A stretch of DNA of 63,639 nt, counting the filler, from Reclinomonas americana ATCC 50394 (Eukaryota): NCBI GenBank assembly GCA_048213135.1. It is 14 parts of 14 records of this genome, joined end to end, with 100 filler letters (N's around TTAATTAATTAA, not from the genome) between each part and the next. Parts side by side here need not be neighbours in the genome. Positions count along the whole stretch, not along the records: positions 6,048 to 11,989 come from AFZH01022960.1; positions 12,090 to 19,170 come from AFZH01022964.1; positions 19,271 to 21,240 come from AFZH01022966.1; positions 21,341 to 23,185 come from AFZH01022967.1; positions 23,286 to 25,483 come from AFZH01022968.1; positions 25,584 to 44,475 come from AFZH01022969.1; positions 44,576 to 47,632 come from AFZH01022970.1; positions 47,733 to 50,018 come from AFZH01022971.1; 6 more parts are not named here. One strand, 5' to 3'. This document shows positions 9,364-49,256 of this stretch, in pieces. Numbering within the stretch: the stretch's first letter is position 1; each line of letters opens with the position of its first letter. The notes beneath the pieces are model-generated. The model had not been told where the DNA came from. It made no database searches and saw only the letters and a program-made list of their open reading frames with translations. Position numbers and translations under genes: made by a program.

Positions 9364-10507
9364 TCATTGCATGGCGGAATACCACTCAGGCGCACGGCGC
9401 TCAATCACCTCCGCATCCTCCAACACAAAACACCGCAGTACGACGTCCACAAGGATCCAGTCATGGTGGTCGTCGGCAAGCAGCCCGTTGATGGCCAGCA
9501 CAGCTGATCGTGCGGCCGCAAGCTCTTGCCGCGCCAGCCCACGCGGCGAGGACCACACTCGGATCGTCTCGTCCTGACTCGCGCTTACCACATGCAGACC
9601 ATCGGGAGTGACGGCGACAGAGAACGCACCTCCAGTGTGACCCACCAAACGTCGCAATTCTTGCCCACTCGTCAGCGACCACACCCGCACCGTCTTGTCA
9701 TCGCTGCCGCTCACAACGTACTGACCATCGGGAGTGACGGCGACGGATCCCACCGCGCCAGTGTGCCCCTCCAAACGCCGCATTTCTTCACCACTCGCCA
9801 GTAACCAGACCCACACAGTCCTATCCCTGCCACTCACGATATGCAGGCCATCGGGAGTGACAGCGACAGAATTAACCCACCTGGAGAGTCCCTCCATCCG
9901 TAGTAATTCTTCTCCACTCGCCAGTGACCACACCCGCAATGTTCTGTCCTCACCCCCGCTCACAATGTGTTGGCCATTGGGAGTGACAGCAAGGGACCAC
10001 ACGGCACCAGCACATCTCGCCAACTGGCGCACTTCTTCGCCACTCGCCAGTGACCTCACGCGTACCATACCAAAATAACTCCCACTCACGATGTGTCGAC
10101 CGTCGGGAGTAACGGCGACAGAAAGCACTCCGCCGAATGTTTCATCAAACCGTCTCACCTCCTCTCCACTCGCCAGTAACCACACTCTCACTGTCTTATC
10201 CATGCCGCCAGTCACAATGTGCTGGCCGTCGGGAGTGATGTCGACAGACCACACCTTGTCAGTGTGTCCTTCCAACCGTCGCACTTCTTCGCCACTCGCC
10301 AGTGACCAAACTCGCGCCGATCCATCATAGCCGCCGCTCACAATAAATTGACCATCCGGGGTGACGGCGACACATTTCACCGCGTCTGTGTGACCCTGCA
10401 AGATCTGTGTCGACTATGGGTACAAAGAGAGAGAGACAGAGAAAGAGAAAGCAACAGCCACTAATAGAATCCTTCGCACGCGTGTGTGAGCGTACCTTAG
10501 TTGTCAT
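9364..10507 (-). CDS. WD40-only protein copy 1 (7 repeats, type-A tail)
   Basis: Exon 1 is 10496-10507 (ATG ACA ACT AAG, MTTK), followed by a GT..CAG intron at 10405-10495 and exon 2 at 9364-10404. Seven WD repeats; tail RGLARQELAAARSAVLAINGLL..DWILVDVVLRCFVLEDAEVIERRAP. Confidence 0.9.
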
Positions 10508-12089
10508 TTGGAAAGATAAATGACTCTTGTGTCTCTCTTGATAGGTTCGCTTCTGTTGACTTGCGCTCTTCGGAGAACCAGCCACTTGGTTGGTACTCTC
10601 GGTGGTAAACGAAGAGTCTGTTCTCGTGAGCGTGTATGTGTATGCGTGTGTTGCTCGCTTCTGATTGTCACCGGTTCCCGCTTTTCTTCTCCCGCCTTGC
10701 TCTGAGACGTCGTCCATCCCTCGCCAGGCTGCAGCCAGTACCCCACACAACAGACGGTAGTGTGAGCAATGTGGCTTCGTTGATGTATGTGGTCTTCGAA
10801 GACCGATTTGGACTTGTTGATGGGAAATCCGCAGAATGGACATGCAAGGTGGTGGTGACACAAGGTGAAGCTCCACTGCACCGTGCTGCTGACCAGCGAC
10901 ACTCTCTTTTGACTGACCTGCATTCTCTGTCAACGAGGACTGGCATGTCGGGCTGCTTGGATACGCAGCTGCGGCCCTGGTGTGCTGATGCCACGGCACA
11001 CCCGAGAATCCATGGAGCACCGAGTCTTCGAAACCTCACACTTCCTTGGATCGGCCCACAGCGAGGTTGACGAGGGTACGACGAAGAAAGAGAGACTCAA
11101 GGGATATGAGAGGAGCGACCAGCGCAGCAGCACAGCGGTGGAAGAGGCAGCTGCGTCGTGTGACTCGCCTCCCCTCACCCAGATCTAGATCACAATCAAT
11201 GCCTCGTGCCTTCAAAGACACTCACAGTCGGTCGGTTGAATCGTCTCATGCAGGCAACCACGTGCCGTCGACATCATGCTGCATGCATGCTAGTGGCCAA
11301 TCACTTGCCAATACGCCTGTGTTCAGATCACACAGAGAACTGCGTCAGTCAATCTCCAAGTCTCGTCAACTTGTTCCTCAACGCAGATGCAGAACGCGCG
11401 CGCACCATGTGTTGCTGGCCGAGCATGCGTCTGCAGTCTCCTGTGGCCACCAACATCATCACTCGACAGAGACAGCATCAGCCAAGGTGCACACACCATC
11501 GATCCGCTCCGACTTGCCAGCCCACCGACAAGGCCACCATCGCACATAATGGCACGCGCGCATGTGTACATCCTCTCAGCCACGTTCTCCATGATACGCA
11601 CGGCCTGCATGGATGAGGTGAGTGGGAGCGAAGGAGGAAAGAAAGATCAAGACGAACAAGGCCACACACCTGCATCGTGCATTGGTGGGATGCGAGTGGG
11701 GAGCCGACTGAGTGAGGTGACAGCCGGTAGCGGGCGATGCACAGCACGCCTGCAATCATTACGGAACAACAACGAGGAGCACGTGTTTTCGAGGTGCCTG
11801 CATATAGGTGCACTGTGAGCAAAAGGAAAAGAGGAAGGAGAGAGAAATCTGCTCTGTCTCAACGACGAACACACCGATCAGCATCTGGTATCAACACGCG
11901 TTTGGGCAAGAGGCAAGGCGAGGGATGCTTCTTCACATACATCCATCCTACAAGGGAGAGAAGGAGCAGAGTCAGTATGCAGGTATGCCNNNNNNNNNNN
12001 NNNNNNNNNNNNNNNNNNNNNNNNNNNNNNNNNTTAATTAATTAANNNNNNNNNNNNNNNNNNNNNNNNNNNNNNNNNNNNNNNNNNNN

Positions 12090-13203
12090 CTCGGGAAGGC
12101 ATCGTGAATCTACTTCCTCCTCGACTGCCCTCCTCTCCTCCTGCATCTCTTGAATAGCCTGCATGGCCGAGCGTGCGGCGTCGAGTTCGAAGCCAGCAAG
12201 GCCACGCGGAGACGACCGCACTCGCACGGTCTCGTCGTAGCCACCCGCACTCACAATGTGCTGACCATTGGGAGAGAGGGCCACAGACGACACCCAGTCA
12301 GTGTGTCCCTCCAACTGTCGCATTAGCTGTCCACTTGCCAGAGACCATACCCGAATGGAGCTGTCCCCGCTCCCGCTCACGATGTGCTGTCCATTTGGGG
12401 TGACGGCGACAGACGACACCCAGTCAGTGTGTCCCTCCAACCGTCGCACTTGGTCTCCACTCGCAAGCGACCACACTCGCATGGTGTTGTCCCGACTCCC
12501 ACTAAAAATATGCCGACAATCTGGAGTGACAGTAACAGAGTACACCCATCCAGTGTGTCCCGCCAATCGTCGCACCTCCTCCCCACTCGCCATCAACCAC
12601 ACTCGCACTGTGTTGTCGCAGCTACCACTCACAATATGCTGACTATCGGGGGTGACGGCGACAGACCGCACCGTGTCTGTGTGTCCCTCCAGCCGTCGCA
12701 CCTCCTCCCCACTCGCCAGAGACCACACTCTCACTGTGTTATCGTAGCTGCCGCTGACAATGTGCTGGTCATCGAAGGCGACGGCAACTGACCGCACCGC
12801 ATTGGCGTGCCCCTCCAGCCGTCGCTCTTCTTCCCCACTCGCCAGCGACCACACACGTACGGTACAGTCTCCACACCCACTCACTATCTGCTGGCCATCT
12901 TGGGTGACGGCGACAGAAAACACCACATCAGTGGGTCCCACCAGCCGTCGCACTTCTTTGCCACTCGCCAGTGACCACACTCGAACGGTACTGTCCAAGC
13001 ACCCACCGACAATATGCTTGTTATCGGGAGTGACGACGACGGACCACACCGCAGCGAGACTACGAATGATCTGTGCCGATCACTCGCAGTGAGACGCAAT
13101 GCACAGCGACACAAACAACAACCGCACACGATGCACAAGCACACGAATGCACGCACACACACCAACCACGCAAAAGCGCACACATTCACACCTTTGTTGC
13201 CAT
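12090..13203 (-). CDS. WD40-only protein copy 2 (7 repeats, type-B tail, 3' end in gap)
   Basis: Exon 1 is 13192-13203 (MATK), intron 13071-13191, and exon 2 starts IIRSLAAVWSV in frame with ORF 12042-13049. Tail ELDAARSAMQAIQEMQEE..VDSRCLPE runs into the gap. Confidence 0.85.
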
Positions 13204-14706: not shown

Positions 14707-14803
<97 letters not shown>

Positions 14804-15308: not shown

Positions 15309-16476
15309 TCAGCACCGGAAAAGGACGACCTCGGCATCCTCGACGATGAAGCAGCGCAGAACCAGCTCGGGAAGGCATCGTGAATCTACTTCTTCCTCGT
15401 CCTCCTGCATCTCCTGCACAGCTCGTATGGCCGAGCGCGCGGCGTCGAGTTCAAGGCGAGCAAGGCCACGCGGCGTGGACCACACTCGCACCGTCCTGTC
15501 GTAGCCACCCGCACTCACAACGTGCAGACCATTGGGAGAGACGGCCACAGACGACACCCATCCGTCATGTCCCTCCAACCATCGCTCTTCCTCGCCACTC
15601 ACCAGAGACCACATCCGCACTGTGCTGTCCTTGCTCCCACTCACGACATGCTGGCCGTCGGGAGTAACAGCGACGGCGCGCACCCTTCCAGAGTGTCCCT
15701 CCAATCGTCGCACTTGGTCTCCACTTATCAGCGACCATACCCGCACGGTGCAGTCCCCGCCCCCGCTTACGATGTGCTGACCATCTGGAGTAACAGCGAC
15801 AGACTGCACCCATCCAGTATGTCCCTCTAACCGCCGCACCTCTTCCCCGCTCGCCAGCAACCACACCCGCACTGTGTTGTCTTCACCCCCACTCACTACA
15901 TGCTGACCATCAGGGGTGACAGCGACGGAGGTCACCCTTGTAGTGTGTCCCTCCAGCCGTCGCACCTCCTCCCCACTCGCCAGAGACCACACTCGTACTG
16001 TGCAGTCCCAGCTCCCACTCACGATGTGATGACCCTCAGGAGTGATGGCGACAGACATCACCGTGTCGGCGTGCCCCTCTAACCGTCGCACCTCTTCCCC
16101 ACTCGCCAGCGACCACACACACACGGTACAGTCTCCACCGCCACTGACAATAAGCTGATCATGACAATCAAGAGTGACGGCGACAGAGAACACCGCGCCA
16201 GCGTGTCCCTCCAGCCGTCGCGCCTCCTTGCCACTCGCCAGAGACCACACTCGAATCGTGTTGTCCATGCACCCACCGACAATGTGCTGACAATCGGGAG
16301 TGACGGCGACGGACCGCACCGAAGAAGCGAGACTCTGAATGATCTGTGTCGATCATTCGCGGTGAGACACACATACACAAACACACAAACAACAACCACA
16401 CACACGCACGAGCACACGAATGCACGCACAGACACCAAACACGCAAAAGTGCGCACACTTTCACCTTTGTTGTCAT
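15309..16476 (-). CDS. WD40-only protein copy 3 (7 repeats, type-B tail)
   Basis: Exon 1 is 16465-16476 (MTTK), intron 16344-16464, exon 2 is 15309-16343. Tail ..EEVDSRCLPELVLRCFIVEDAEVVLFRC*. Confidence 0.9.
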
Positions 16477-18645
16477 TCTCCTGCTCAGGATTGTCACGAG
16501 TTCCCGCCTTTCTTCTCCCGCCTTGCTCTGAGACGTCCCTCATCCCTCGCCAGGCTGCAGCCAGTACGCCACACAACATGCGGTAGTGTGTGAACGATGT
16601 GGCTTCGTTGATGCGTGTGGGCTTTCAAAGACCGACATGGGACTTGTCGGTGAGAAATCGGCAGAATGGACATGCTGGCGACACAAGGTGGCGCTCCACT
16701 GCATCGCGCTGCTGACCAGCGACACTCTCTTTCGACTGACCTGCATCATCTCTCAACAAGGACTGGCATGTCGGTCTGCTTGGATACGCAGTTGTGGCCC
16801 TGGTGTGCTGATGCCACGCCACACCCGAGAATCCATGGAGCACAAACGAGTCATGGATACCTCACACCTCCTTGGATCGGCCCACAGCGAAGCTGACGAG
16901 GTGCACGTCATGATCGTACGACGAAGAAGGAGAGTCACAGGGAACAGGAGAGGAGCGACCAGCACAGCAGCTCAGCGGTGGACGAGGCAGCTGTGTCGTG
17001 AGACTCGCCTCCCTCTCACCGAAGTCACAATCAATGCCTCGTGCCTTCAATCACACTCACAGTCTGTCGGTGAATCGTCTCATGCATGTACTGTGAGGCA
17101 CGGAACCACGTGTTGCCCAGTGGCCAATCACTTGCCAGCACGCCTGTCACACAGAATTGAGTCAGTCAATCTCCAAGTCTCACCAACTTACTCCTCAACG
17201 CAGATGCAGAACACACACGTACGCACCAGGCCACGCACGTGCCTGCAGTCTTCCATGGCCATCACCATCATTACTTGGCGGCGATAGCAGCAACCAAGAA
17301 GCGCACATCATCGATCCGCTCTGACTTGCCAACCGGGATCGAGAACGATCCACCGACCAGGCCACCCATCGGGAAACACGACACGCATGTGTCCACCCAT
17401 GAGTAGATTGCCGAGCACGCGTCTGCAGTCTTCCATGACCACCAGCATCGTCACTCGGCAGTGTGAGCAGCAACCAACGTGCGCACATCATCGATCCGCT
17501 CCGACTTGCCAGACGGGATTGAAAACGATCCACCGACCAGGCCATCCATCGCACAGCACGGCACGCATGTGTACACCCACCCAGCCACGCTCTCCATGAC
17601 GTGCACGGCCTGCATAATTGAGGTGAGTGGGAGGGAAGGAGGAGAGAGAGAGATCACGAAGAACAGGGCCACACAACTGCTGAGTGCACGGTGGGATGCG
17701 AGTGGGGAGCCGAGTGAGTGAGGTGACGGTCGACAACGGGCAATGCACATCACGCCTGTCATCGCCACGACATGCTTTCCATGGTCTCTGCATGCCGGTG
17801 TGCTGTGAGCAAAGAATGGAGGACGGGGAGAGAAATTCGCTCTGTCTCACTGACAAACACACCGATCAGCATCTGATACCAACGCGCGTTTGTCAAGAAG
17901 CAAGCCAAGGGACGCTCACACAACCATCCTGCAAGGGAGAGAAGGAGCAGAGTCAGTATACAGGTATGTCACCTCACACACTTCGGCATCGGGATACTCA
18001 CCATGATGGACTGGCAGGATGGCAATCGGAACACGGTGAGCGGACCAGAAGCTCGACCTCGAGCGTGTGCGGCAAGGAGGGGTGGATGCCTGGGGAATCA
18101 GATGAGCGCACAAAGGCAGGGAGACGGTGGAGAATGAGATAGACTCTGCAAGGGACAGAAAGGGAGAGAGAGCTGAAAGACAGGCATTCTTCGGGGCGGA
18201 AGGAGAATGTCCACGGCGCACGCGCCAATGGGAAGCAGAGTATAGCGGTGCACAAGACGCGAGGGAAACAGACAACGGTGACTCGCTCTCATGAGGCACG
18301 TATATCAGCGACGAAAGATGCACGCACAACAGACATCACAACGAGGGGAAATGAAATCACAGACTCCAATTGATTCATCGCACTTGCAACACACAAACTG
18401 AGGTGAGAAAGAGACACGCACACAGAGGGAGACATGCTCCACGCCCACCCACTCTCATTCACATGACAGGGCAACAAACACGGGAGAAGAATTCACCACC
18501 ATCAACAGCCATCTCTCGATCTCTCTCCTCTGTCATCCTCTCTTCCCCACCTGCATCCCGCATGATTACCCACTCTCCCTCGCAAGACACGAAAAAACAA
18601 CTCACGATCACCAGCAGCCACCTTCCCACCCTTTGGCTCACCTTC

Positions 18646-19170
18646 TCAGCACCGAAAAAGGACGACCTCGGCATCCTCGACGATGAAACAGCGCAGAACC
18701 AGCTCGGGAAGGCATCGTGAATCTACTTCTTCCTCCTGCATCTCCTGCACAGCCAGCATGGCCGAGCGCGGCGTCGAGCTCGACGCGAGCAAGGCCGCGC
18801 GGCGTGGACCACACTCGCACGGTCTCGTCGTGGCCACCGACGCTCACAATGTGCTGACCATCGGGAGAGACGGCCGCACACGACACCCATCCGTCATGAC
18901 CCTCCAACCGTCGCACCTCCTCGCCACTCTCCAGAGACCATACCCGCACGGTGCTGTCCTCGCTCCCACTCACGACTTGCTGGCCATCGGAGGTGACGGC
19001 CACAGACGACACCCATCCAGTGTGTCCTTCTAGTCGTCGCACTTCTTCTCCACTCGTCAGTGACCACACTCTCACCGTGTTGTCCCTACAGCCACCCACG
19101 ATGTGCTGACCGTCTGGAGTAACAGCGACTGAAATCACCCATCTAGTGTGTCCTTCCAACCGCCGCACTT
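18646..19170 (-). pseudogene. WD40-only copy 4 (type B); 5' part in gap, 2-bp deletion in tail
   Basis: Three WD repeats are visible. ggccgagcgcggcg here versus ggccgagcgcgcggcg in copy 3 shifts the tail into another frame (ORFs 18638-19168 and 18646-18837). Confidence 0.7.
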
Positions 19171-20096: not shown

Positions 20097-23000
20097 TGTC
20101 TCTACTCGTATGTGTGGCGGTCGCTTGTGGATGCCATCTCTCTCTCTCTGTGTGTGTATGTGTGTGAGTGCGTGTGTGTGTGTCTCACTCTATCTCTGTC
20201 TCACTCACATACTCACTCACTTATTCACGCACTCACTCACACATACAGAAGATAAATTGAGAATAATCCGGATGCTTATCCTCTCTCTCTCCTCCTCTCG
20301 CTCTCTCTCACTCTCCCTTTCCACCCCCCTCTTCTCTCTGCTTGTATGTGTGCGTCATGGTAACCGAGCTGCTGTGGCTGAAAGAGGGCGCTCTTGTTCC
20401 TGTTTATTTGTGCACTTAGTGCTTGAATGAGGTGATGACCTGTCCAGTTTGCCAGTACTATCTCCTTCTGAGCCCTTGTCCACATCTCAGTGTCTCTCTT
20501 CGACTGCGCGTGTCTGCACTCTCACATTCCCTTTTGCTGACGCCGCCTTCTCACGAAACATCTCCATCAGGTGCTGGTGGTGTCCGGATGGTCCGGTGGC
20601 GGCAAGTCCGTCCTGCTGCGCCAGCTGACCGCCCGCCTACACGCACGTGACGACACACTGGTGTTGTCGGCTCGCCTGCCCGGCATTCCACACCAAGAAG
20701 TGCTGCGCAGAGCAGGAGCACTATTGCCTCACCTTTTGCGCGAGGCCAATGAAGCCGTTCTGGATGAGAAGATGCACGTGACCGAGGAAGAGGTAAGCAT
20801 GTCGTTTGCGTTTTTACCCGTGCGTTATTCGTGTTGTTCTTGCTGCGATGATGAGAGCACGGATTCTGGCGTTGCATGAGTTTCTGTATGCGGTACCCGC
20901 AATACGCTGTCTCGCATTTCCTTTTGCTATATCTCATTCCATTCTGTTCGCAGCGATTCCCTCCTCTTTCTCTTGGTGACTTTTCTCACTCTCTGCCTTT
21001 ATTTCTGTGCTCATTGCTCTCAAACACTCTGCCCCGTCTCTCTCTCTCTCTCTGTAACTCCTTCACATTTCTTGCACGCACTGTCCATGGCTTATGCACT
21101 CTCTGCCTCTCTCTTTCTCCTTCCCCACTCCTTCTCTCTCAACCTTTCCACCTTTCAGCCCTTCACTTCTCTCTCCGCTCGTTTTCTCTGTCTCTCTCTC
21201 TCCACTCGTTTTCTCTGCTCCATGTGAGTCCTTGTCTCCANNNNNNNNNNNNNNNNNNNNNNNNNNNNNNNNNNNNNNNNNNNNTTAATTAATTAANNNN
21301 NNNNNNNNNNNNNNNNNNNNNNNNNNNNNNNNNNNNNNNNCTCTCTCTCTCCCCACCCCTTCTCTTTCTCTCCATTGCTGCGATTTCTCATAATTTCTCT
21401 GCATCTTCTCACCCCCTGCGCCTCACCCCCGTGCAGCTCCGACGCATCGGCACCGTCGTGCTTGTGCTCGACGGATACGACGAGTGCGGTGAGCCACCTG
21501 GCAATCTGTACGTCAACCACGAGCTGGGTGTTGCGTTTCTCTACCAAGTGATGCATCAACAACACACACACAGTGACTCTTACTCGAATCACCCAGTGCC
21601 GGCCCAACGTTCTCCTGGTGATGTCGGTGCGACGCGAGTTCATCAGCCGCATCGGCAACCTGTGGGCAGAGGGGCATTTTGTGCCAGTGGACGCAGATAT
21701 ATCACGTGCTGCGCGGCTTGAGCAGCCTGAACGGACGCTGGCGCGATGCATGCTGCGCCACTTTTCCAAGGACGACGTTGATCTCTTCCTCCAAAAGTTG
21801 CGAGCATTCCTGCCAATTTCCCCCTTTGCACATCTGACTCTTACGCTGTCTGCGCAGGTTTGTGGAGTCGCATGCGGGACATTCGCGCTCGTGGGAGCAG
21901 TACAAGCAGCAGATCAGGCGCACGCCTGGGCTGGATGGACTTGCGTCGTCGGTGAGTCGATGGCGATGGGAAAGGGAAAGGGACACATTAGTGTGCACAA
22001 AGAGAGAGTGGCAAGGCAAGCGGGCATTAGGGAACTGACGCGCTACTAAGGAAATGAGTGCCAAGAGGTTCACACAGACAGTAGTAGGACACCTGATGTG
22101 ATGTGAGGAGGGTAGTTTCCTCCGTCAGCATAGGCTTTGGTGTGTAGATACAACAGAGTGCATCAGGATGAGTACCGGCACGAATAGGGAAGAGGATCGC
22201 CGGGAACACACCAGAATCAGAAGTGCTGGAAATGTTACGGAGACGGGCTTGATGCAGAAGTACAACAGAGTGCACCAGAAAGAGTGGCGATACGGAGAGT
22301 GAAGTGGAGCGCCGGGTATCAGAAGGTCAGCGCAGAGACGGCACTCAGAATAGCAGGATAAGCGAATCAGAAGTGCACGAAGTACTCCAGAGTTGGGGCT
22401 TTGAAGCAGAAGTACAACGGTGGGCGCAGGGAAGAGTGGTGGTACGAATAGGAAAGAGAATGGCCGGGCACGGAGAGTTTAGAAGTGAGCGCCAGAAGAG
22501 ATAGGTTCGCGCCGTCAGAAAGGACGAGTGGTTACAATCGAGTTCGGCGCAGTGACGGCGCCGATAGTACAGAAGTGCAGGAATTTGTTAAAGTGCAGGG
22601 TAGTTTCATCTGTCAGCAGGGGCGCTGATCGCGGGAAGAGTGGTGGTATGAATAGGGCTGAGGAACCCCGAGTGCTCAAGGTAGAAAAATTGTGCCAGTA
22701 GAGGCTGGATTACAGCCACCACAACAGGACGTGATGCAGAATTCTGACGGGAAGTGTGGTTGTACGACAAATGGGAGGACAGAGTGTACAAGACCTGTGA
22801 CAGATGAGAGTGGTTATACGACAGGAGGGAGGACAGAGTGTACAGGAACTGTGACAGAGGAGAGTGGCTACTCTACACGTGGCTACTCGACACCTGATGC
22901 AAGTAGATTCCGAATAGTTTCAGAAGAAAATCTGAATGAGGAGAGCATAAGTGCCGACTGCTCATCCTACACGTCGAGTGTGCTGTGCGTTGTTCTCACT

Positions 23001-25973
23001 TTTTTCATCGTGCAGCCTCTGATGTTGAACATGATTGTACTGGTGATGGAGGATCTGGAGAGAATCGGACACCACCACGGTAGTGGTGATGACTCCGCAC
23101 CACGGCTGTCGCGAGTGACCCGTGCACGGTTGTATGAAGCGTTTGCCAAACGCAAACTGCGACTGGAATTCGAGCATTACCAAATNNNNNNNNNNNNNNN
23201 NNNNNNNNNNNNNNNNNNNNNNNNNNNNNTTAATTAATTAANNNNNNNNNNNNNNNNNNNNNNNNNNNNNNNNNNNNNNNNNNNNTTATCTCGTGTGTGC
23301 GTGTTTGTCCTGTGTGCCTTGTGCAAATCGCGTCGGTGGTGTGAATCACTCACATCGCTCTATTCTTCATCCTCCCCTCCCCTCCTCTCTCTCTTCTCAC
23401 TCTTCACCTACGGCTACCACTATACAGATTTCGCGCTCAGATGAAGATTTGATAGTGGGTGAGGAGAGGAGACAGCCAGCTGCACGAGAGATAAGAGAGA
23501 CTGTTGTTTCTGACTGAGACGTATGTGGGAGTGTCTGGCGTCCCTGATGGCGTGGTCAGAGATGTCAGAGAGAGATGAGAAAGAGAAGTGGAAGTATTTT
23601 TTGGTGCCACTGTCCCTTTTTTGGTGGGCTGTGTTGCGCACATCACCGTTCCGCCCAGACACCCTCGTTCATGTCTCACTCTTCTTTCATCTCTTTCCCT
23701 ACTTATCTGTGCCACTGTCCCTTTAAGTGGGCTGTGTTGCGTACATCACCGTTCCGCCCAGACACCCCCGTTCATGCCTCACTCGTCTTTCATCTCTTTC
23801 CCTACTTATTTGTGCCACTGTCCCTTTTCATCACCGTCCCACCCAGACACCCTCATTCGTGCCTCACTTTTCTTGCATCTCTTTCCCTATTTTTTGGTGC
23901 CACTGTCCCTTTTCATCACCGTTCCGCCCAGACACCCTCGTTCGTGCCTCACTTTTCTTGCATCTCTTTCCCGACTTTTTGGTGCCACTATCCTTTTCAT
24001 CACCGTCCCATCCAGACACCCTCATTCGTGCCTCACTCTTCCTTCATCTCTTTCCCCCTACGGCAGCGCACTCACCAATCCCTCGCGGAGCAAGAATTGT
24101 GGAACAAGTGGTTCGATCGCTCTGACCCGTTGCAGAACTCGCTTGTTCGCGCTGTTGCGTTGCGCTGTTGCGTTGTGCTGTGTGACCTCTCTGTGTGCGT
24201 CTTATTTGAGTTTGACGGTTCAGGCATTGTTGAAGTGGAGCCGACTTGGAGTGTCGCAGCAACGTGTCGAGTTCATGCACAAATCTGTGCTTGAATACTT
24301 TGCCGCACAGTCGTGGCTGGCGGATGTGCAGATGTTGGCCAATGACGAGGTGGAGTTGGAGGTGAGCAATGGCGCGCGTCGCTCTGCTTGTACCAACTGC
24401 ACGATTGTCATGGTGCTTCTGTTTTGTGCAGGATCGAGTCGACCGATTGTGCTACAGTTTCAGTGGACAGCGGGCGCTACTCACATCGGATGAAGTGAGC
24501 GCCTCTGTATCATCGCCGCGTGTGCTCATCTCAATCACTCACTCCTCCTTTTCCATGATCGCAGGCTCTCAACTCCATCCTGTCATTCATTGCCGAGCAA
24601 GTGCAGTCAGATCCGTCTCTCCACGACGCATTATGGAAGGCCATTGCACTCTCGCGCACAGAGGAGAGAGTCACTGCCGTGTCATCGAGTGCGGCAAGTG
24701 CGCTGTGCCTCGCAGAGGTGTCGTTCAGTGGACGCGATCTGTCGGGTGTGCGTATCCCAGGTGCGGACTTGAGGGACGCAGTGATGCATAGGTCGGTGTG
24801 GCGTGGTGCCGATCTGCGAGGGGTGAATCTGTGCATGGCCTTTGCGAAAGAGGCGGATATTCGAGGGGCGGATGTGACGGGTGTGAGGTGGCCGAGGAGG
24901 CCGATGGTGGGACACGCCGACGACGTAAACGCTGTTGCATTCACACTCGACGGTCTCCACATTGTGAGTGGCGGCCGAGACAAAACATTGCGAGTGTGGT
25001 CACTGGCGAGTGGGAAAGAGGTGCAGCGGTTGGAGGGGCACGCTGGTGAGGTGCGCTCCGTTGTCATCACTCCCGATGCGCAGCACATTGTCAGTGCCGG
25101 TGACGACAAGACCGTGCGCGTGTGGTCGCTGGCGACTGGACTAGAGGAGCGACGGTTTGAGGGACACACCGATAGAGTGTTCTCGGTCGCAGTCTCTCCC
25201 GATGGTCAGCACCTTGTCAGTGGGAGTAGAGATGCAACGGTGCGAGTGTGGTCGTTGGCGAGTGGAGAGGAAGTGCGGCGGTTGGACGGGCACACCGACT
25301 ACGTGCGGTCCGTCGCCATTACTCCGGACGGCCAGCACATTGTGAGTGGCAGTGGCGACAAGACTGTGCGTGTGTGGTCACTGTCGAGTGGAGAGGAGGT
25401 GCGACGGTTGGCAGGACACACGGATGATGTGAGGGCGGTCACGGTCACACCCGACGGCCACTTTATTGTGAGTGGGAGTAATGNNNNNNNNNNNNNNNNN
25501 NNNNNNNNNNNNNNNNNNNNNNNNNNNTTAATTAATTAANNNNNNNNNNNNNNNNNNNNNNNNNNNNNNNNNNNNNNNNNNNNTTGAGTGCGAGTCGAGA
25601 TAAGATCGTACGCATGTGGTCACTGGTGAGTGGAGAGGAGGTGCGACGGTGGGAGGGACATGCGGGCTGGGTGACCGCCATCGCCGTCACTCTCGACGGG
25701 CAGCACGTTGTGAGCGGGAGTGAGGACCAAACAGTGCGAGTGTGGTCGATGGCGAGTGGAGAAGAGTTGCGACGATTGGAGGGGCACACGGACTGGGTGC
25801 AGTGTGTTGCCGTCTCTCCTGACGGGCAGCAGATTGTCAGTGGTGGGCGTGATAACACGGTGCGAGTGTGGTCGACGTTGGTGGCGAGTGGAGACATGAA
25901 GTGGCGAGGTGCGCTGCTGCAGCGGGTCTGTGGGTCTTTTTTGCCGGATTTTGGGGGTGTGTTGTATGAGTAA
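19469..25973 (+). CDS. NLR-like protein 2: intron-rich NACHT/STAND NTPase, pentapeptide repeats, WD40 repeats (spans three gaps; N-terminus uncertain)
   Basis: Walker A exon [13 protein letters not shown] (20571-), Walker [11 protein letters not shown] (~21455-21483), sensor-like [17 protein letters not shown] (~23016) and [13 protein letters not shown] (~24270). These are followed by [19 protein letters not shown] pentapeptides and WD repeats at 24.9-25.9 kb, ending [13 protein letters not shown]. Confidence 0.8.
20014..20096. repeat. (GTGA)n/(GT)n microsatellite in an NLR2 intron
   Basis: Seen directly. Confidence 0.95.
23600..24056. repeat. Intronic minisatellite, about 5 copies of a ~85-105 bp unit
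   Basis: Recurrent gtgccactgtccctttt..catcaccgttccgcccagacaccctc..catctctttccc. Confidence 0.85.
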
Positions 25974-34409: not shown

Positions 34410-35584
34410 CTACCACAAAAGCGCACGGCGTTCGATCACCTCTGCATCCTCCAACACAAAGCACCGCAGCACGACATCGACCAGGATCCAGTCACGGCCA
34501 TCGTCCCTCTCGTCGAACAGCAGCTCGTCGGCGGCCAGCGCGGCCAATCGCGCGGCCGCAAGCTCCTGACCGGCAAGTCCACGCGGTGTGGACCACACTC
34601 GTATCGTCCCGTCAATGCCACCCGCACTCACAATGCGATCACTGTCAGGAGAGACGGCCACACACGACACCCATCCAGTGTGCCCCTCTATCCGTCGCAC
34701 TTCCTCGCCGCTCGCCAGAGACCACACCCGCACGGTGCAGTCCCCACTCCCGCTCACAGTGTGCTGTCCATTTGGGGTGACAGCGACAGACGTCGCGGTA
34801 CTGGCGTGTCCCTTCAACTGTCGCATGAGCTCCCCGCTTGCCAGAGACCACACTCGCACTGTGTTGTCCCTACTGCCACTCACGACGTGTTGACCATCTG
34901 GAGTAACAGCGACTGACATCACCCAGTCAGCGTGTTCCCCCAATCGTCGCACCTCCTCCCCACTCGCCAGCAACCATACCCGCACGGTGTTGTCCCCACC
35001 GCCACTCACCACATGCTGACCATCGGGAGTGACTGTGACACAATACACCACTCCAGTGCCTCCTTCCAACCGTCGCGCCTCCTCCCCACTCACCAGTGAC
35101 CACACCCGCACTGTGTTGTCATAGCCGCCGCTGGTGATGTACTGCCCATCAGGCGAGACGGCGACTGACATCACCGTACTGGCGTGTTCCTCCAGCCGTC
35201 GCACTTCTTCTCCACTCGCCAGCGACCACACACGTACGGTACAGTCTCCACTTCCACTCACTATCTGCTGGCCATCAGGAGCGACAGCGACACAATACAC
35301 CCATCCAGTGTGTCCATCCAGCCGTCGCACTTCTTCGCCACTCGCCAGCGACCACACTCGAATCGTCCTGTCCACACATCCACCGACACTGTGTCTGCCA
35401 TCGGAAGTGCGACTGTGACGGATCGCACCGAAGAAGCGCGACTACGAATGATCTGTGCCGACCATTCGCGATGAGACGCATGCACAGCAGCAACATTTGA
35501 AGACACGCACACATGCACAAGCACACGTATGCACGCACAGACACCAACCACGCAAAAGTGCACACATCACACCTTTGTTGCCAT
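34410..35584 (-). pseudogene. WD40-only copy 5: chimeric (type-B body, type-A tail) with a frameshift in repeat 1
   Basis: Exon 1 is 35573-35584 (MATK) and exon 2 starts at 35452 (IIRSRASSVRSV). An extra 2 nt at ~35410 (gtc-gc-act) puts it out of frame with ORF 34410-35375. Tail ELAAARLAAL..DWILVDVVLRCF. Confidence 0.75.
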
Positions 35585-36489: not shown

Positions 36490-37765
36490 TCACTCCGTCC
36501 AGCACCATCCAGGCGCACGGCGTTCAATCACCTTTCCATCCTCCAGCACGAAGCACCACAGCACGACATCGACGAGGATCCAGTCACAGTCATCTTCTTC
36601 GGCAAGCAGCTCGTTGACAGCCAGCACGGCCGATCGTGCGGCAGCAAGCTCTTGCCTCGCCAGCCCACGCGGCGTGGACCACACACGGATCGTTTTATCC
36701 TGACTGCCACACACGATGTGCTGGCCATCGGGAGCGACGGCAACAGACCAAACGGCACCAGTGTGCCCCTCCAACCGTCGCACTTCCTCTCCACTCGCCA
36801 GCGACCACATCCGCACCGTCTTGTCGGCACTTCCACTCACAACAAGTTGCTGACTATCGGGAGTGAAAGCGACGGTCAGCACTGCATTGCTGTGTCCCTC
36901 CATCCGTCGTACTTCTTCTCCAGTTGCCAGCGACCATACTCGCACCGTGTGGTCATCGCTCGCGCTCACGATGTGGTGTCCATCGGGAGAGACGGCGACA
37001 GACCGCACGGCACCGGTGTGTCCCTCTAGCCGCCACACCTCCTCACCACTCACGAGGGACCACACTCGAACAACGGCATCCTCACCCCCACTGACAATGT
37101 GCTGACTATCAGGAGTGACAGCGACAGAGAACACCCAGTGACCGTTTCTCTGCATTTGTCGCACGCGTTCCATACTCGTGAGGGGCCACTCTCGGACTGT
37201 GCCGTCCGCCCAACCAATTACAATGCGCTGACCAGCAGTGATAGCGACAGAGTATACCGCACTGAGACTTCTCAACCGCCGCACTTCTTCTCCATCTGAG
37301 GCGGCCAGTGACCACACCCGTACACTCGTATCCTCACTGCCGCTGACGATATACTGATTATCGGGAGTGACAGCGACAGACCACACCCATCCAGTGTGTC
37401 CCTCAAACCGTCGCTCTTCCTCTCCGCTCGCCAGCGACCACACTCGCACTGTCTTGTCCCTACTGCCACTCACAATGAACTGACATTCAACAGTAATCAT
37501 GACAGCGACTGTCAGCACTGTTCCGAAACCCTCTCCAAATCGTCGCACTTCTTCTCCACTCGCCAGAGACCACACACGCACCGACCCGTCGAAGCCCCCA
37601 CTCACGATAAATTGACCATCGGGGGTGATGGCGACACATCGCACAGTGTCTGTGTGACCCTGCAAGACCTATGTCGATCATCACTGTGAGATGGACAAAG
37701 AGAGCAGCAGCCACACACACGAATCCCACACGCACGCGCACGTGTGAGCGCACCTTGGTCGCCAT
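36490..37765 (-). CDS. WD40-only protein copy 6 (8 repeats, type-A tail)
   Basis: Exon 1 is 37754-37765 (MATK), intron 37669-37753 ending TAG, exon 2 is 36490-37668. Confidence 0.88.
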
Positions 37766-39928: not shown

Positions 39929-41110
39929 TCAGCACCAGAAAAGGACGACCTCGGCATCCTCGACAATGAAGCAGCGCAGAACCAGCTCGGGAAGGCATCG
40001 TGAATTTCCCTTCTCCTCTTGCATCTCCTGCACGGCATGCATGGCCGAGCGCGCAGCGTCGAGTTCGAAGCGAGCAAGGCCACGCGGCGTGGACCACACT
40101 CGCACGGTCTCGTCGTAGCCACCCGCACTCACAATGTGCTGACCATCGGGAGAGACGGCCACAGACGATGCCCATGAAGTGTGTCCCTCCAACCGTCGCA
40201 CTTCCTCGCCACTCGCCAGAGACCACATCCGCACTGTGCTGTCCTCGCTCCCGCTAACAATGTGCTGACCATCGGGAGTGACAGCGACACAATACACCCA
40301 TCCAGTGTGTCCCTCCAACCGGCGTACTTTCTTCCCACTTACCAGTGACAATATTCGCACTGTCTCGTCCCCACCGCCACTCACAATTTGCAGTCCATCC
40401 AGGGTGACAGCGACAGAGAGCACCAAGCCAGCGTGTCCTTCCAACCGTCGCACCTCTTCACCGCTCGCCAGCAACCACACTCGAACTGTGTTGTCTTCAC
40501 CGCCACTCACAACGTACTTACCATCGGGGGTGACTGCCACAGACATCACCCTTGCAGTGTGTCCCTGCAGCCGTCGCACCTCCTTGCCACTCGCCAGCGA
40601 CCACAGCCATATTGTCCTGTCGCAGCTGCCGCTCACGATGTGATGACCATCAGGAGTGACTGCGACAGACATCACCATGTCGGTGTGGCCCTCCAGCTGT
40701 CGCACCTCTTCTCCACTCGCCAGTGACCACATTCGTACTGAATTGTCGAAGCTGCCGCTCACGATGTGCTGATTATCAGGGGTGACAGCGACAGACGTTA
40801 CCGTGTCGGTGTGTCCATCCAGCCGTCGAACCTCTTCTCCACTTGCCAGAGACCACACTCGAATCGTCTTGTTCACACATCCACCGACAATGTGCTTGCC
40901 ATCGGGAGTGATGGTGACGGACCGCACTGCAGCGAGACTACGAATGACCTGTGCACGTGTTGATCACCCGCGGGTGAGACGCACGCAGCAGCAATCAAAG
41001 ACAAGCATAACAACACAAAGAACAACAACTGCACACATGCACAAGCACACCAATGAACGCACAGACATCAACCACGCAAAGTGCGCACGAATTCACACCT
41101 TTGTTGTCAT
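39929..41110 (-). CDS. WD40-only protein copy 7 (7 repeats, type-B tail)
   Basis: Exon 1 is 41099-41110 (MTTK), intron 40949-41098, exon 2 is 39929-40948. Confidence 0.9.
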
Positions 41111-42013: not shown

Positions 42014-43172
42014 TCACTCCGTCCAACACCATCCAGGCGCACGGTATGCAATCACCTCTGCGTCCTCCCGCACAAAACACCGCAGCACGACGTCGACCAG
42101 GATCCAGTCACAGTCATCTTCTTCGGCAAGCAGCTCGTTGATGGCCAGCACAGCTGATCGTGCGGCCGCAACCTCTTGCCGCGCCAGCCCACGCGGCGTG
42201 GACCACACACGGATCGTCTTGTCATTACTCGCACTCACGATGTGCTGACTGTCGGGAGTGACGGCGACGGAGACCACCAAGCTAGTGTGCCCATCAAACC
42301 GTCGCAATTGTTCCCCACTCGCCAGCGACCACACCCGCACCGTGTTGTCCCGACTGCCACTGACAATGTATTGGCTGTCGGGAGTGACAGCGACAGACCG
42401 CACTGCATCGGTGTGGCCGTTCAGCTGTCGCACTTCCTGGCCACTCGCCAGCGACCACAATCGTATTGTCTTGTCAGAACCTCCGCTCACAACATGCTGA
42501 CCGTCGGGAGAGATGGCGACAGACCACACTCTCTCAGTGTGCCCTTCCAGCAGCCATACTTCCTCCCCACTCGCAACAGACCACACTCGAATTGTGTCGT
42601 CCCAGCTGCCACTGACAATGTACTGGCCATTCGGCGTGAAAGCGACAGAGAACGTTAACACCACGCTAGTGTGGCCCTCCAACGGTCGCCCTTGTTCCCC
42701 ACTTGCCAAAGACCACACGCGAATGGTCTTGTGCAAGTCGCCACTCACAACGTGCAGGCCATCGGGAGAGATGGCCACACACCACACGTATGAAGTGTGT
42801 CCCTCGAGTCGTCGCACCTCCTTGCCACTCGCCAGAGACCACACTCGAACTGTCTTATCCATGCCACCGCTCACAATGTGCTGGCCATCGGGAGTGACAG
42901 CGACGGAGGTCACCCATCCAGCGTGTCTCTCCAACCGTCGCACTTGTTCTCCACTCACGAGTGACCACATTATGACCGATCCGTCAGAGCCGCCGCTCAC
43001 GATGTGCTGGCCATCGGGAGTGATGGTGACACACTTCACAGCGTCTGTGTGACTCCGCAAGACCTGTGTCACATAATGAGACGCGAAGATAGAGAGAGAG
43101 AGAGAGAGCAACAGCCACAACCACGAAATCCCTCACACACACACGCGCGTGTGAGCGCACCTTGGTTGCCAT
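42014..43172 (-). CDS. WD40-only protein copy 8 (7 repeats, type-A tail)
   Basis: Exon 1 is 43161-43172 (MATK), intron 43064-43160, exon 2 is 42014-43063. Confidence 0.9.
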
Positions 43173-44575
43173 TGGGAAAGAGGAAGGATAAATGACTCTT
43201 GTGTCCTCTCTTTACAGGTTCGCTTCTGTTGACTTTCTCTCTTCGGAGAGCAAGCCACCTGCGGTACTCTACTGCGGTGGTGGTCACCAAGAGTCTGTTC
43301 TTGTGCGCGTGTGTGTGTGCGTGATTGCTCGCTCGGGATTGTCATTGTTTCCCGCCATTCTTCTCCCGCCTTGCTCCGAGACATCGTTCATCCCTCGCCA
43401 GGCTGCAACCAGCACCCTACGCATCATGCGGTAGTGTGAGTGATGCGGTTCCGATGATGCATGTGGGCTTTTGAAGACCGTGGGACTCGTCGATGCGTAA
43501 TCGGCATGGACATGCAAGGTGGTGGTGGTGGTGGTGACACGAGGTTGGCGCTCCATTGCATCGAGACCGGCCTGCATTATCTCTCAACGAGGACTGGATT
43601 GTCGAGCTGCTTGGATACACAACTCTGGCCCTGTGCTGATGGCACAGCACAGCCGAGAATCCATTGAGCACTGAGACATCGAATCCTCACGCCTCCTTGG
43701 ATCGGACCACAGCGAGGCTGATGAAGGCACAACGAGGAAAGAGACTCAAGGGATATGAGAGGAGCGACCAGCACAGCCCATCAGAGGTGAAAGAGGCAGC
43801 TGTGTCATGAGACTCGCCTGCTCTCACCCAGATCACAGGCAATGCCTCGTGCCTTCAATCACACTCACAGTCTGTCGGTGAATCGTCTCATGCGTGTACT
43901 GCGAAGCACGGAACCACGTGTCTTCGCATGCCAGTGACGAGTCACTTGCCAGCCCGCCTGCCGCACAGAATTGAGTCAGTCAATCTTCAAGTCCCGCAAA
44001 CTTGTTCCTTAATGGAGATGCAGAACACGTACGCACCAGGCCACGCGCGCGTCTGCAGTCTCCCATGGCCATCACCATCATTACTTGGCGGCGACAGCAG
44101 CAACCAAGAAGCGCACATCATCGATCCGCTCTGACTTGCCAACCGGGATCGAGAACGATCCACCGACCAGGCCACCCATCGGGAAACACGACACGCATGT
44201 GTCCACCCATGAATAGATTGCCGAGCACGTGTCTGCAGTCTTCCATGACCACCAGCATCATCACTCGACAGAGACGGCGGCAGCCAAGGTGCGCACATCA
44301 TCAATCCGCTCCGACTCGCCAGCCGGGATTGAAAACTATCCACCGACCAGGCCATCCATCGCACATCACTGAACGAATGTGTACACCCATCCAGTCACGC
44401 ACTCCATGGCCTGCACGACCTGCATAATTGAGGTGAGTGGGAGGGAAGGAGGAGAGAGAGATCACGAAGAACAGGNNNNNNNNNNNNNNNNNNNNNNNNN
44501 NNNNNNNNNNNNNNNNNNNTTAATTAATTAANNNNNNNNNNNNNNNNNNNNNNNNNNNNNNNNNNNNNNNNNNNN

Positions 44576-45577
44576 ATCTTGACCACCCGCACTCACAATA
44601 TTAATGTGCTGACCATTGGGAGAGACGGCCACAGACGACACCCATCCAGTGTCCCTCCAACCGTCGCACCTCCTCTCCACTCGCCAGAGACCATACCCGA
44701 ACGGTGCTGTCTCCGCACCCGCTAACAATGTGCTCACTATCAGGGGTGACAGCGACTGACCACACCTTTTCGATGAGTCCGTCCAGCCGTCGCACCTCCT
44801 CCCCACTTGCCAGCGACCACACTCGCACTGTGCAGTCCCAGCTCCCACTGATAATGTGCTGACCATCGTAAGTGACGGCAACAGAGTACACCCATTCAGT
44901 GTGTCCATCCAGCCGTCGCACTTCTTCCCCGCTCGCCAGCAACCACACCCGCACGGTGTTGTCGAAACCGCCGCTCACAACGTGCTTACCATCAGGAGTG
45001 ACGACGACAGACAACACCCTAGTGTGCCCCTCCAGCCGTCGTACCTCCTCCCCGCTCGCCAGCGACCACACCCGCAATGTCTGATCGTAGCCACCGCTGA
45101 CAACGTGCTGACAATCAGGCGTGACGGCAACAGATGTCACAGTGTCGGCGTGTCCAACCAGCCGTCGTACCTCCTCCCCACTCACCAGCGACCACACTCG
45201 AACTGTGTTGTCATAGCTGCCACTGACAATGTACTGACCATCGGGGGTCACGATGACACAATACACCCATCCAGTGTGTCCCACCAGCCGTCGCACCTCT
45301 TCTCCACTTGCCAGAGACCACACTCGAATCGACTTATCCACACATCCACCAACAATGTGCTTGCCATCGGGAGTGACGGCGACCGACTGCACCACAGCGA
45401 GACTCTGAATGATCTGTGTCGATCACTCGCGGGTGAGACACACGCACACAGCATCAACTTTCGAAGACATGCACAACAACACAAAGAACAACAACTGCAC
45501 ACGATGCACAAGCACACGAATGCACGCACAGACACCAACCACGCAAAGTGCGCATGCACTCACACCTTTGTTGTCAT
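44576..45577 (-). pseudogene. WD40-only copy 9 (type B); 2-bp deletion before repeat 7, 3' end in gap
   Basis: Exon 1 is 45566-45577 (MTTK) and exon 2 starts at 45413. ccagtgtccc here versus consensus ccagtgtgtccc at ~44650 shifts the frame. Confidence 0.7.
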
Positions 45578-47205: not shown

Positions 47206-48083
47206 TCAGCACCGGAAGAGGACGACCTCGGCATCCTCGACGATGAAACAGCGCAGAATCAGCTCGGGAAGGCATCGTGAATCTACTTCCTCGACGGCCC
47301 TTTCTCCTTGCATCTCCTGCACAGCCCGCATGGCCGAGCGCGCAGCGTCGAGTTCGAGACGAGCAAGGCCACGCGGCGTGGGCCACACTCTCACGGTCTT
47401 ATCTTGGCCACCCGCACTCACAATGTGCTGACCATCGGGAGAGACGGCCACAGATGACACCCATCCAGTGTGACCATCCAACCGCCGCACTTCCTCGCCA
47501 CTTGCCAGAGACCATACCCGCACGGTGCTGTCCTCGCTCCCACTCACGACATGCTGACCATCAGGGGTGACAGCGACAGACGTCACCCAGTCAGTGTGTC
47601 CCTCCAACTGTCGCACTAGGTCTCCACTCATCNNNNNNNNNNNNNNNNNNNNNNNNNNNNNNNNNNNNNNNNNNNNTTAATTAATTAANNNNNNNNNNNN
47701 NNNNNNNNNNNNNNNNNNNNNNNNNNNNNNNNACGCACGGTACAGTCTCCACCGCCACTGACAATAAGCTGACCATCAGGAGTGACGGCGACAGAGAACA
47801 CCCCGCCAGCGTGTCCCTCCAGCCGTCGCACCTCCTTGCCACTCGCCAGAGACCACACTCGAATCGTCTTGTCCATGCATCCACCAACAATGTGCTGGCA
47901 ATCGGGAGTGACGGCGACGGATCTCACCACAGAAGTGAGACTCTGAATGATCTGTATCAATCACTCGTGGTGAGACGCACATGCACAAACACACAAACGA
48001 CAACCACACATGCACAAGCACACGAATGCACGCACAGACACCAACCACGCAAAGTGCGCACAAATTCACACCTTTGTTGCCAT
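47206..48083 (-). CDS. WD40-only protein copy 10 (type B), middle in gap
   Basis: 5' part: exon 1 at 48072-48083 (MATK), exon 2 from 47951. 3' part: 47206-47632 with a type-B tail. The halves are separated by a spacer and could belong to two copies. Confidence 0.75.
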
Positions 48084-48976
48084 TCTCCGTGAGAGAGAGA
48101 GAGAGTGCGTGAGAGTGTGTGTGTGTGTGTCGTGCGCGTGTGCGTGTGTGAAGTGAACGACAAGCAGTCTGATTCATCCGACGGGACATCAACTCTTTCT
48201 CTCTCGCGTTTGTGTGCGCCTCGCGGTGCTGTCTGTGTCTCAGTGCCCCCTGTCTCTCCACGTCCCCGTCGTGGTGCTACATTCTCCAACTGCGATGTGA
48301 GCGAGATGTTGTGGCATTGAATGTGCACGCATGCATGCCGAGCCAGTTCCAACTCGACATTCCACGAGCATCAACCCCTCCGAGTCACGCATGTGAGTCG
48401 GGTGGAGAGGCAACACCACACGATTCAGAAAGAGATCAATGAGGCATCGCAATTCGTGAGTGGGCGTCACACCAGTTATCAGGGCACACACGCACGCGTG
48501 GGAAACGAGTGTGCTGCATGGCAAGTGCACTCCCTCCCCGTGGCGTGTGTAACGAGAAGAGTGGCCATCTGAATCGATGCCTGACGCGCTTTTCATGTTC
48601 ACGCGGTGCCAGTGTGAGAGGCCTAGGGGGAGGCGGAAATGATACCACTGGCCACTGCTTCAAAAAGCGACAGGCTGGCATCCCCGCCGCGTTCGAATGA
48701 CGAAGCGACATGAGGGGTGGGTGTGTGTATGAGCGAGGGCTCGCTCAACGCCGAGCAGAACGCGTGTCTTTTCATCCATGGTCTCATCTCAACCACCCAC
48801 ACACACACCTCGCACTCGGCATGCTCTTCTTGCACTCCCACTGCACTGTGCTGTGTCTGCTTTCCGGCTGCCTGCACTTGGCAAGGCAGTGGAGAAGCAC
48901 GTGTGAGGCGGTGTGGCGGTCAACAAAACAGAGTTACGCGCAGTGACAGCCATCGGTCTTCGTACATTCATCGAGC

Positions 48977-49256
48977 TCACTCCGTCCAGCACCATCCAGG
49001 CGCACGGCGTTCAATCACCTCTGCATCCTCCAGCACAAAACACCGCAGCACGACGTCGACGAGGATCCAGTCACAGTCATCTTCGGCAAGCAGCTCGTTG
49101 ACAGCCAGCACGGCCAGTCGTGCGGCAGCGAGCTCCTGCCGCGCCAGCCCACGCGGCGTGAACCCCACACGGATCGCTTTATCCGCACTCCCACTGGCCA
49201 TCGGGAGTAACGACGACAGAGTATACCCATCCAATGTGTCCCCTCCAACCGTCCAA
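48977..49256 (-). pseudogene. WD40-only copy 11, remnant (last repeat with internal deletion plus type-A tail)
   Basis: ..GWVYSVVVTPDGQ/SGSADKAIRVGFTPRGLARQELAAAR..WCWTE*. The upstream part is replaced by low-complexity DNA. Confidence 0.8.

Follow-up and report, generated by a model that had tools for sequence, protein, structure and literature searches.

The window analysed here, a stretch of 63,639 bases from the genome assembly of Reclinomonas americana ATCC 50394, contains a cluster of WD40 propeller genes around two genes for receptors of the STAND type (signal transduction ATPases with numerous domains), which resemble NOD-like receptors (NLRs) and are called NLR1 and NLR2. On balance, we favour the view that this is a lineage-specific cluster of two divergent STAND/NLR-like genes and ten stand-alone propeller genes, the satellites, and that the latter are free binding modules and not silent donors of repeats. 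The satellites look like old, separately evolving genes and not like a bank of cassettes for the rewriting of NLRs. The evidence comes from the anatomy of the genes, the pattern of selection on their repeats, the absence of recent exchange between satellites and NLRs, and the rarity of the satellite tail.

The window consists of 14 contigs of 1.5–18.9 kb each, broken up by 13 spacers of 100 bp (N44-TTAATTAATTAA-N44, making 26 runs of 44 N in total, at sites 5948–62142), and is thus not contiguous; the original prediction, made from the DNA alone, had called for contiguity to be confirmed. The joining spacers put stops into all six frames, and an apparent open reading frame (ORF) or repeat across a spacer is not real sequence. 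The G+C content is 49–61%. ORFs are fragmented and genes have GT-AG introns, which marks the source as a eukaryote. WD40 repeats (blades) were located with a hidden Markov model (HMM) built from 13 of the 14 repeats of NLR2 and run on the six-frame ORF set. The 87 matches of blade size (independent E values of 1e-5 to 1e-28) all fell within 9538–49244, and the flanking contigs gave no match with this model. Pfam WD40 (PF00400) was found in 10 of the 10 WD ORFs tested, with E values of 2e-55 to 5e-143. The consensus unit is 42 amino acids or 126 nt, common to the NLRs and the satellites and in the same register, as had been predicted. Pfam and the HMM likewise bear out the predicted layout of two plus-strand NACHT-pentapeptide-WD40 genes between minus-strand arrays of WD-only genes. 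Four satellites to the left and about seven to the right had been expected, most with seven repeats; four were found on the left, and six plus one 3′ remnant on the right, with seven blades in seven satellites, eight in S6, and S4 and S10/S11 cut by gaps. The 14 repeats ascribed to NLR1 belong to NLR2, NLR1 showing eight different blades. The members of the cluster are as follows.

20541–25970, plus strand: NLR1, a multi-exon NACHT-pentapeptide-WD40 gene on four contigs, with its true start further upstream
28907–33262, plus strand: NLR2, a single ORF of 1451 amino acids, with a probable start at 29123 (MAFEVV)
9364–10507, minus strand: S1, type A tail; intron of 91 nt, 7 blades and tail, stop at 9364–9366
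12090–13203, minus strand: S2, type B; exon 1 MATK, intron of 121 nt, 7 blades, the end of the tail falling in the gap 11990–12089
15309–16476, minus strand: S3, type B, complete; exon 1 MTTK, intron of 121 nt, 7 blades and tail
18641–19170, minus strand: S4, type B, 3′ part with 3 blades and tail, the 5′ part in a gap; one frameshift, with the tail intact in the next frame
34410–35584, minus strand: S5, a chimera of a type B 5′ region and blades with a type A tail; a frameshift in blade 1, the splice frame running into a stop at codon 63
36490–37765, minus strand: S6, type A; exon 1 MATK, intron of 85 nt, 8 blades (two degenerate) and tail
39929–41110, minus strand: S7, type B, complete; exon 1 MTTK, intron of 150 nt, 7 blades and tail
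42014–43172, minus strand: S8, type A, complete; exon 1 MATK at 43161–43172, intron of 97 nt, 7 blades and tail
44576–45577, minus strand: S9, type B; exon 1 MTTK, intron of 152 nt, 7 blades, of which blade 7 is frameshifted close to the end of the contig, the tail falling in a gap
47209–48083, minus strand: S10/S11, type B, a single gene that the spacer 47633–47732 divides into blades 6–7 with the tail (47209–47632) and exon 1, intron and blades 1–2 (47733–48083)
48977–49253, minus strand: 3′ remnant, type A, in which the tail is intact and the last blade partial and frameshifted; family homology ends at 49253, the right edge of the array

The WD ORFs of the satellites begin directly after a stop codon, without an ATG. 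Upstream of them, all nine copies whose 5′ end is assembled (that of the tenth, S4, is not) carry a first exon of four codons, ATG-(G/A)C(A/G)-AC(A/C/T)-AAG, which encodes MATK or MTTK and runs directly into the GT of the intron; in S1 this exon is ATGACAACTAAG at 10496–10507. The same nine copies have a GT-AG intron of 85–152 nt, whose YAG acceptor keeps the WD ORF in phase. From the conserved exon 1 and intron, the satellite protein is predicted to comprise 4 residues, 7 blades (8 in S6) and a private tail, some 55 amino acids long, which occurs in two types (type A, ...DWILVDVVLRCFVLEDAEVIERRAP...; type B, ...SRCLPELVLRCFIVEDAEVVLF..). On this predicted anatomy, the satellites are complete genes. 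The intergenic spacers between them measure 1.05 or about 2.2 kb and gave no Pfam family in ORFs of at least 100 amino acids. A 180-bp unit, present in 1.9 copies, lies in these spacers at 17235–17579 and 44051–44390 (81–83% matches) and belongs to the duplicated spacer.

In NLR2, the NACHT domain lies at 29888–30382 (residues 328–492; PF05729, 34.4 bits against a cut-off of 26.7) and contains the Walker A motif GNSGAGKT and the Walker B motif LLLLLDGYDE, so that both the profile and the two motifs identify NLR2 as a NACHT STAND NTPase. Pentapeptide repeats follow at 31172–31276 (PF00805, E 8e-8), then exactly 14 blades at 31361–33121, and the protein ends with ...GSFLPDFSDALND. NLR1 was pieced together from an exon at 20541–20879 with Walker A (20553–20801; motif GWSGGGKS), an exon at 21455–21532 with Walker B (motif LVLDGYDE), further pieces colinear with NLR2 at 21675–21800 and 24272–24346, a pentapeptide region at 24559–24906 (PF00805, E 1.7e-8, 34.3 bits), and at least 8 different blades, of which 6 are whole and 2 partial, on the two sides of an assembly gap (24907–25483 and 25584–25904). 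Its P-loop exons, taken singly, gave only AAA matches below threshold. In both genes, the pentapeptide repeats link the nucleotide-binding and oligomerisation (NOD) module to the WD40 repeats. Introns are numerous in NLR1 and absent from NLR2. The two proteins are 64% identical over the pentapeptide region and 31–46% identical in the P-loop exons, which suggests module exchange or very uneven constraint. Both share a C-terminal GSFLPDF motif that the satellites do not have. A tblastn search within the window found no NACHT-like sequence beyond the two genes.

The N-terminal domain of NLR2 is an orphan with a VRNKLRH motif (29483–29557, residues 193–217). Its first ∼270 residues had no relative in a dedicated search (0 from 1272 candidates) or among the full-length matches, and residues 73–320 gave no Pfam family above threshold. 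Pfam HEPN_Swt1 matched the N-terminus below threshold (E 0.036, 14.8 bits, cut-off 27.5), and the RNKLRH present here can be set beside the Rx4-6H motif of HEPN nucleases; Atlas feature matches gave 0.81 for HEPN_Swt1 and 0.78 for HEPN_DZIP3, against a lead level of 0.9. An AlphaFold 2 (AF2) model from the single sequence had a mean predicted local distance difference test (pLDDT) score of 40.8, too poor for a structure search. As a weak lead, NLR2 may carry an N-terminal effector domain of the RNase type (HEPN).

The fold of a satellite protein was modelled for S8, using AF2 and an alignment of 16 rows. The model (pLDDT 89.7) shows seven blades with 27 strands of at least 3 residues, followed by a helix at 290–314 and a helical end of low confidence. 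Its best match among solved structures (Foldseek) was the propeller of Thermomonospora PkwA (5yzv), with a template modelling (TM) score of 0.96, a root-mean-square deviation of 1.0 Å and 42% identity. Such bacterial-type repetitive propellers (PkwA 5yzv; 2ymu) match the propeller only, over about 286 columns, and leave the helical tail unmatched; the tail itself gave only chance-level matches to solved structures (E above 0.4).

Variation among the repeats is concentrated in five codons per unit, 5, 6, 8, 24 and 26, with entropies of 2.3–3.4 bits; V7 and D25, each between variable positions, are nearly invariant. The commonest residues at the five positions are G, W, R and D, and the five-residue combinations differ in all complete blades (59 of 59). 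In the S8 model, the variable codons map to the d-a loop with the beginning of strand a and to the b-c turn, that is, to loops predicted to form the top binding face of the WD40 propeller. Selection was assessed on 13 non-overlapping positional blade pairs. The ratio of non-synonymous to synonymous rates (dN/dS) was 0.23 for the scaffold codons, and dN at the five variable codons relative to the scaffold dS was 1.00 (bootstrap 0.68–1.41). The scaffold codons are therefore under purifying selection and substitutions in the variable codons accumulate roughly at the neutral rate, which together indicates constrained proteins with an unconstrained or diversifying face.

Four other explanations of the satellites were weighed against this one. 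They could belong to an independent propeller-plus-tail family, of scaffolds or substrate adaptors, that expanded in tandem and whose link to the NLRs is historical or positional. The relatives of the tail speak in its favour. A search with S8 returned 2519 WD40 proteins at E ≤1e-30, mostly cyanobacterial or metagenomic, with 55% identity at best and a coverage of ∼80% that corresponds to the propeller alone; a profile of the tail only found 2 proteins among 1.84 billion representatives (E 5e-16 and 3e-11). The first (P0156) is an ORF derived from an expressed sequence tag (EST) of Reclinomonas americana (EukProt), a 3′ fragment of 116 amino acids that shares the blade scaffold and is 64–68% identical to type B satellites over 105–107 amino acids, tail included; as it derives from an EST, a homologue of the satellites is transcribed. 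The second (P0157) is a stand-alone propeller of 394 amino acids with a C-terminal tail, irregular blades and no NTPase, 27–30% identical over its whole length. Together, the two proteins indicate a transcribed stand-alone family of the satellite type in at least one jakobid. P0156 is the one relative of the tail with a named source, and its jakobid origin lends indirect support to the protist label of the original prediction. A search of metagenome contigs for motifs of the tail gave 72 pattern matches and 0 confirmed relatives.

The satellite tail is, moreover, unlike any region of the NLRs. Local alignments with the NLR tails and the NLR2 N-terminus showed no similarity (z ≤0 in 8 of 8 comparisons), and the tail was rejected as a homologue of either, a MAFFT alignment of the tails being only suggestive; the GSFLPDF motif of the NLR tails, for its part, is their own. 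A Stig1-like gene and a RicinB-like ORF also lie inside the cluster, so that the WD40 genes have unrelated company. Set against an independent family are the blades, which in the satellites follow the NLR-type scaffold and in the distant relative P0157 are irregular; the restriction of variability to binding-face positions, with 59 of 59 combinations unique, which is the pattern of a recognition family and not of housekeeping adaptors; and the position of the arrays on either side of the two NLR genes. We consider this explanation possible, yet rather unlikely. The WD40 proteins Gcp1–3 of jakobids were considered as members of the family and rejected as Pex7-like, on the portion of Horvathova (2021) available.

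In another arrangement, a split NLR system in a deep-branching protist, the ten propellers with a tail would act in trans as sensors or decoys, each having a binding face of its own, with the private tail docking on the two NACHT proteins or on a shared partner. If true, a few NTPase switches would read a large, expandable panel of separately encoded recognition modules. This is an improbable arrangement in our estimation.

The original prediction had put forward the satellites as a donor pool, whose blade cassettes would be copied by gene conversion into the WD exons of the NLRs and change their specificity. The 126-nt unit and register common to NLRs and satellites count in favour of such copying, and the family has recombined in the past: S5 joins a type B 5′ half to a type A tail and shows recombination between family members. 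The repeats themselves argue otherwise. Blades of an NLR and of a satellite are 65.7% identical in DNA on average and 81% at most, compared with 68.5% for blades inside one satellite gene, 63% for blades inside one NLR, 77% for same-position blades of same-type satellites and 92% for the best blade pair overall. The longest exact run between an NLR and a satellite blade was 26 nt, while column permutations gave 26.9 on average and 32 at the 95% point, so that the predicted shared tracts do not go beyond chance; among satellites it was 47 nt, borderline against a 95% point of 46. These tests cover one genome copy and this window.

A tree of the individual repeats, as the original prediction had proposed, left 50 of 78 inner branches open, too many for it to show separate NLR and satellite clades, and in this poorly resolved tree the blades of NLRs and satellites are interleaved, as donor exchange would have it. 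Changes between the NLR and satellite labels numbered 14, compared with 17.9 after shuffling, a value as low being reached in 3 of 500 shuffles. The resolved clades group satellite blades by position (u1, u2, u4 and u7), and the final blades of both NLRs fall in with those of the satellites. NLR blades sit on long terminal branches (0.2–0.96), which speaks against a donor pool. The WD domains are already complete in both NLR genes, homogenisation was found nowhere in the family, and a silent cassette has no need of the start codon, intron, stop, conserved tail and dN/dS of 0.23 that the satellites show. Pseudogenes of the Podospora NWD family retain intact repeats through exchange (Paoletti 2007, in the part available), a point in favour of a donor pool. 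We nevertheless give the donor pool very little credence.

The grouping of blades by position points to duplication of whole genes, and whole satellite units, including their spacers, align at 72–82%. The arrays thus appear to have grown by whole-gene tandem duplication with occasional unequal crossing-over (birth-and-death), without continuing homogenisation of the repeats.

Five of the spacer joins lie inside or beside WD exons. The NLR1 exons keep their order over contigs 4–7, colinear with NLR2; S10 (blades 6–7 and tail) and S11 (exon 1 and blades 1–2) face one another over a spacer; and the five joins cut members of the cluster in register. These three observations show that the spacers represent real scaffold gaps, and the contig order through NLR1 and S10/S11 is supported; no such internal check of adjacency applies to the S4–NLR1 join at 19.2 kb. 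A single uninterrupted contig (25584–44475, 18.9 kb) carries NLR2, the Stig1-like gene and S5–S8. Among stretches of 150 bp or more within the locus, a single pair is at least 88% identical (89.9% over 365 bp); the satellite copies are therefore not haplotigs, an alternative that the original prediction had itself named. That the satellites are decaying former NLR fragments, or products of mis-scaffolding or of uncollapsed haplotypes, as three frameshifted copies, one 3′ remnant and the 13 joins might suggest, is most improbable in view of the purifying dN/dS of 0.23, the conserved ATG, donor and acceptor at all 9 assembled 5′ ends, the open frames past each frameshift, the presence of NLR2 and four satellites on the gap-free contig, the single pair above 88% and the ordered exons of NLR1 over four contigs.

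Several observations weigh against the satellites being free binding modules that evolve separately. The five gaps in or beside WD exons mean that copy number and order may be incomplete. WD exons are 70–81% identical between satellites, compared with 80–91% for their own tails and 77–84% for the upstream non-coding DNA, and they exceed the tails at synonymous sites as well (proportion of synonymous differences, pS, of 0.33–0.50 versus 0.21–0.44). An example is the pair 15465–16343 and 40079–40948. This excess divergence could stem from old blade shuffling with unseen family members, an old exchange that the donor pool could also explain, or from a local mutational bias; exchange is therefore excluded only for the recent past and for this window. 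Positive selection on the variable positions was not significant, the ratio being ∼1 and its interval spanning 1. Exon 1 and the splicing of the satellites are predicted from conservation only. Three of the ten satellites (S4, S5 and S9) each contain a single frameshift, beyond which the reading frame is open and conserved; the frameshifts may for that reason be sequencing errors, and could also be lesions of young pseudogenes. What ties the satellites functionally to the NLRs is adjacency and the shared repeat scaffold, and nothing else.

With these points taken into account, the satellites as free binding modules can be pictured as follows. By analogy with other STAND proteins, the NLR propellers would be ligand sensors that gate the oligomerisation of the NACHT domain. 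The satellites would be expressed in this organism as free, diversified binding modules with ligands of their own, would possibly act in the recognition network of the NLRs as adaptors, decoys or modulators, with a link to immunity, and would not be silent donors from which the NLR sensors are rewritten. The other roles proposed originally, free sensors or decoys and adaptors, are compatible with the data, and a free binder appears to be the best fit.

Among known systems, the NLRs resemble the Podospora HNWD proteins (HET-D, HET-E and HET-R), to which the original prediction had likened them, in having NACHT followed by 42-amino-acid WD repeats with a strongly kept scaffold. In the part of Paoletti (2007) available, the selected codons of the Podospora NWD family are 7 and 9, on either side of 8, and 25 and 27, on either side of 26; they lie in the d-a loop and b-c turn of the top interaction face. 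Here, the pairs that flank a conserved residue are 6/8 and 24/26, with 5 in addition. This layout of variable positions is the part of the likeness that stands. Podospora repeat units are up to 100% identical (Paoletti 2007, same part), and high internal repeat conservation has been defined as protein identity above 85% across 100 amino acids or more (in the part of Dyrka 2014 available), whereas blades within one gene are here 55–70% identical in protein (mean 0.60, maximum 0.83) and 63–69% in DNA. Unlike in the concerted evolution of Podospora, blades group by position and NLR–satellite exchange tracts were not seen. Further differences are a pentapeptide linker, the lack of a Pfam match to the HET domain in the NLR2 N-terminus (that of NLR1 not being covered), and the NTPase-less propeller genes with their own tail in tandem arrays, for which the available Podospora text has no counterpart. 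No description of NTPase-less propeller arrays beside NLRs was found in the literature searched, supplements excepted, and the part of Kaur (2020) available contains nothing on stand-alone propeller arrays.

The relatives of NLR2 include fungal and bacterial proteins. The best was a NACHT-pentapeptide-WD40 protein of 1712 amino acids (P0001; 33.6% identity over 1194 amino acids), followed at 26–31% over about 900–1200 amino acids by proteins of Linnemannia and Mortierella, one EukProt protein and actinobacterial forms that bear a TIR domain. The NACHT-pentapeptide-WD40 proteins of Mortierellomycota (Linnemannia, Mortierella) have the domain order of NLR2, and leave its first ∼270 residues unmatched; the actinobacterial TIR-NACHT-pentapeptide-WD40 proteins, with the same order, are among its closest sequence relatives. 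The cluster is also like cassette-donor systems in having many tandem copies of a recognition module beside receptor genes. The donors of the lamprey VLR system, the silent vls or VSG cassettes and the chicken pseudo-V genes are incomplete, are not expressed and give the acceptor tracts identical to their own. The satellites, in contrast, are predicted to be complete genes, are under purifying selection and share no tracts with the NLRs.

The window contains 211 non-WD ORFs of at least 100 amino acids. Of these, 142, from positions 1–49838, were scanned with Pfam (8 of the first 150 were dropped as N-containing, already scanned or beyond 50 kb), and some of the 61 ORFs at 50.2–63 kb were covered. 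Two of the 142 gave a match, the P-loop exon of NLR1 and the RicinB ORF. The other genes noted in the window are as follows.

33457–34254, plus strand: Stig1-like cysteine-rich ORF with a hydrophobic N-terminus (PF04885, E 1.9e-31), between NLR2 and S5
26437–26988, minus strand: ricin-B-type lectin ORF (PF14200, E 5.6e-8), between NLR1 and NLR2
2581–4794, plus strand: ORF of 737 amino acids with right-handed beta-helix and NosD-type repeats (PF13229, E 8e-19), on the first contig and outside the WD cluster
55573–56778, plus strand: fragment of an Mfd-like gene (transcription-repair coupling factor) with apparent introns (NCBIfam mfd, E 1.5e-32, partial)

Jakobid mitochondria use a bacterial-type RNA polymerase, and if the source of this DNA is a jakobid, a nuclear Mfd gene would be of interest. 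Purine-rich tandem repeats at 50119–51931, with units of 101, 68 and 92 bp (86–94% matches), make up much of the short contig to the right of the cluster.

Animals, plants, fungi and bacteria all have STAND/NLR-like receptors whose sensors consist of variable repeats; how sensor repertoires are put together in other groups is poorly known. The propellers described here have a variable face of the Podospora type without homogenisation of the Podospora type, which indicates that such a face can persist by birth-and-death. If the satellites work with the NLRs, the cluster would represent a modular way of widening recognition; if they act apart from them, it would be a clear case of a propeller family of the recognition type with the same scaffold as the NLR sensors.

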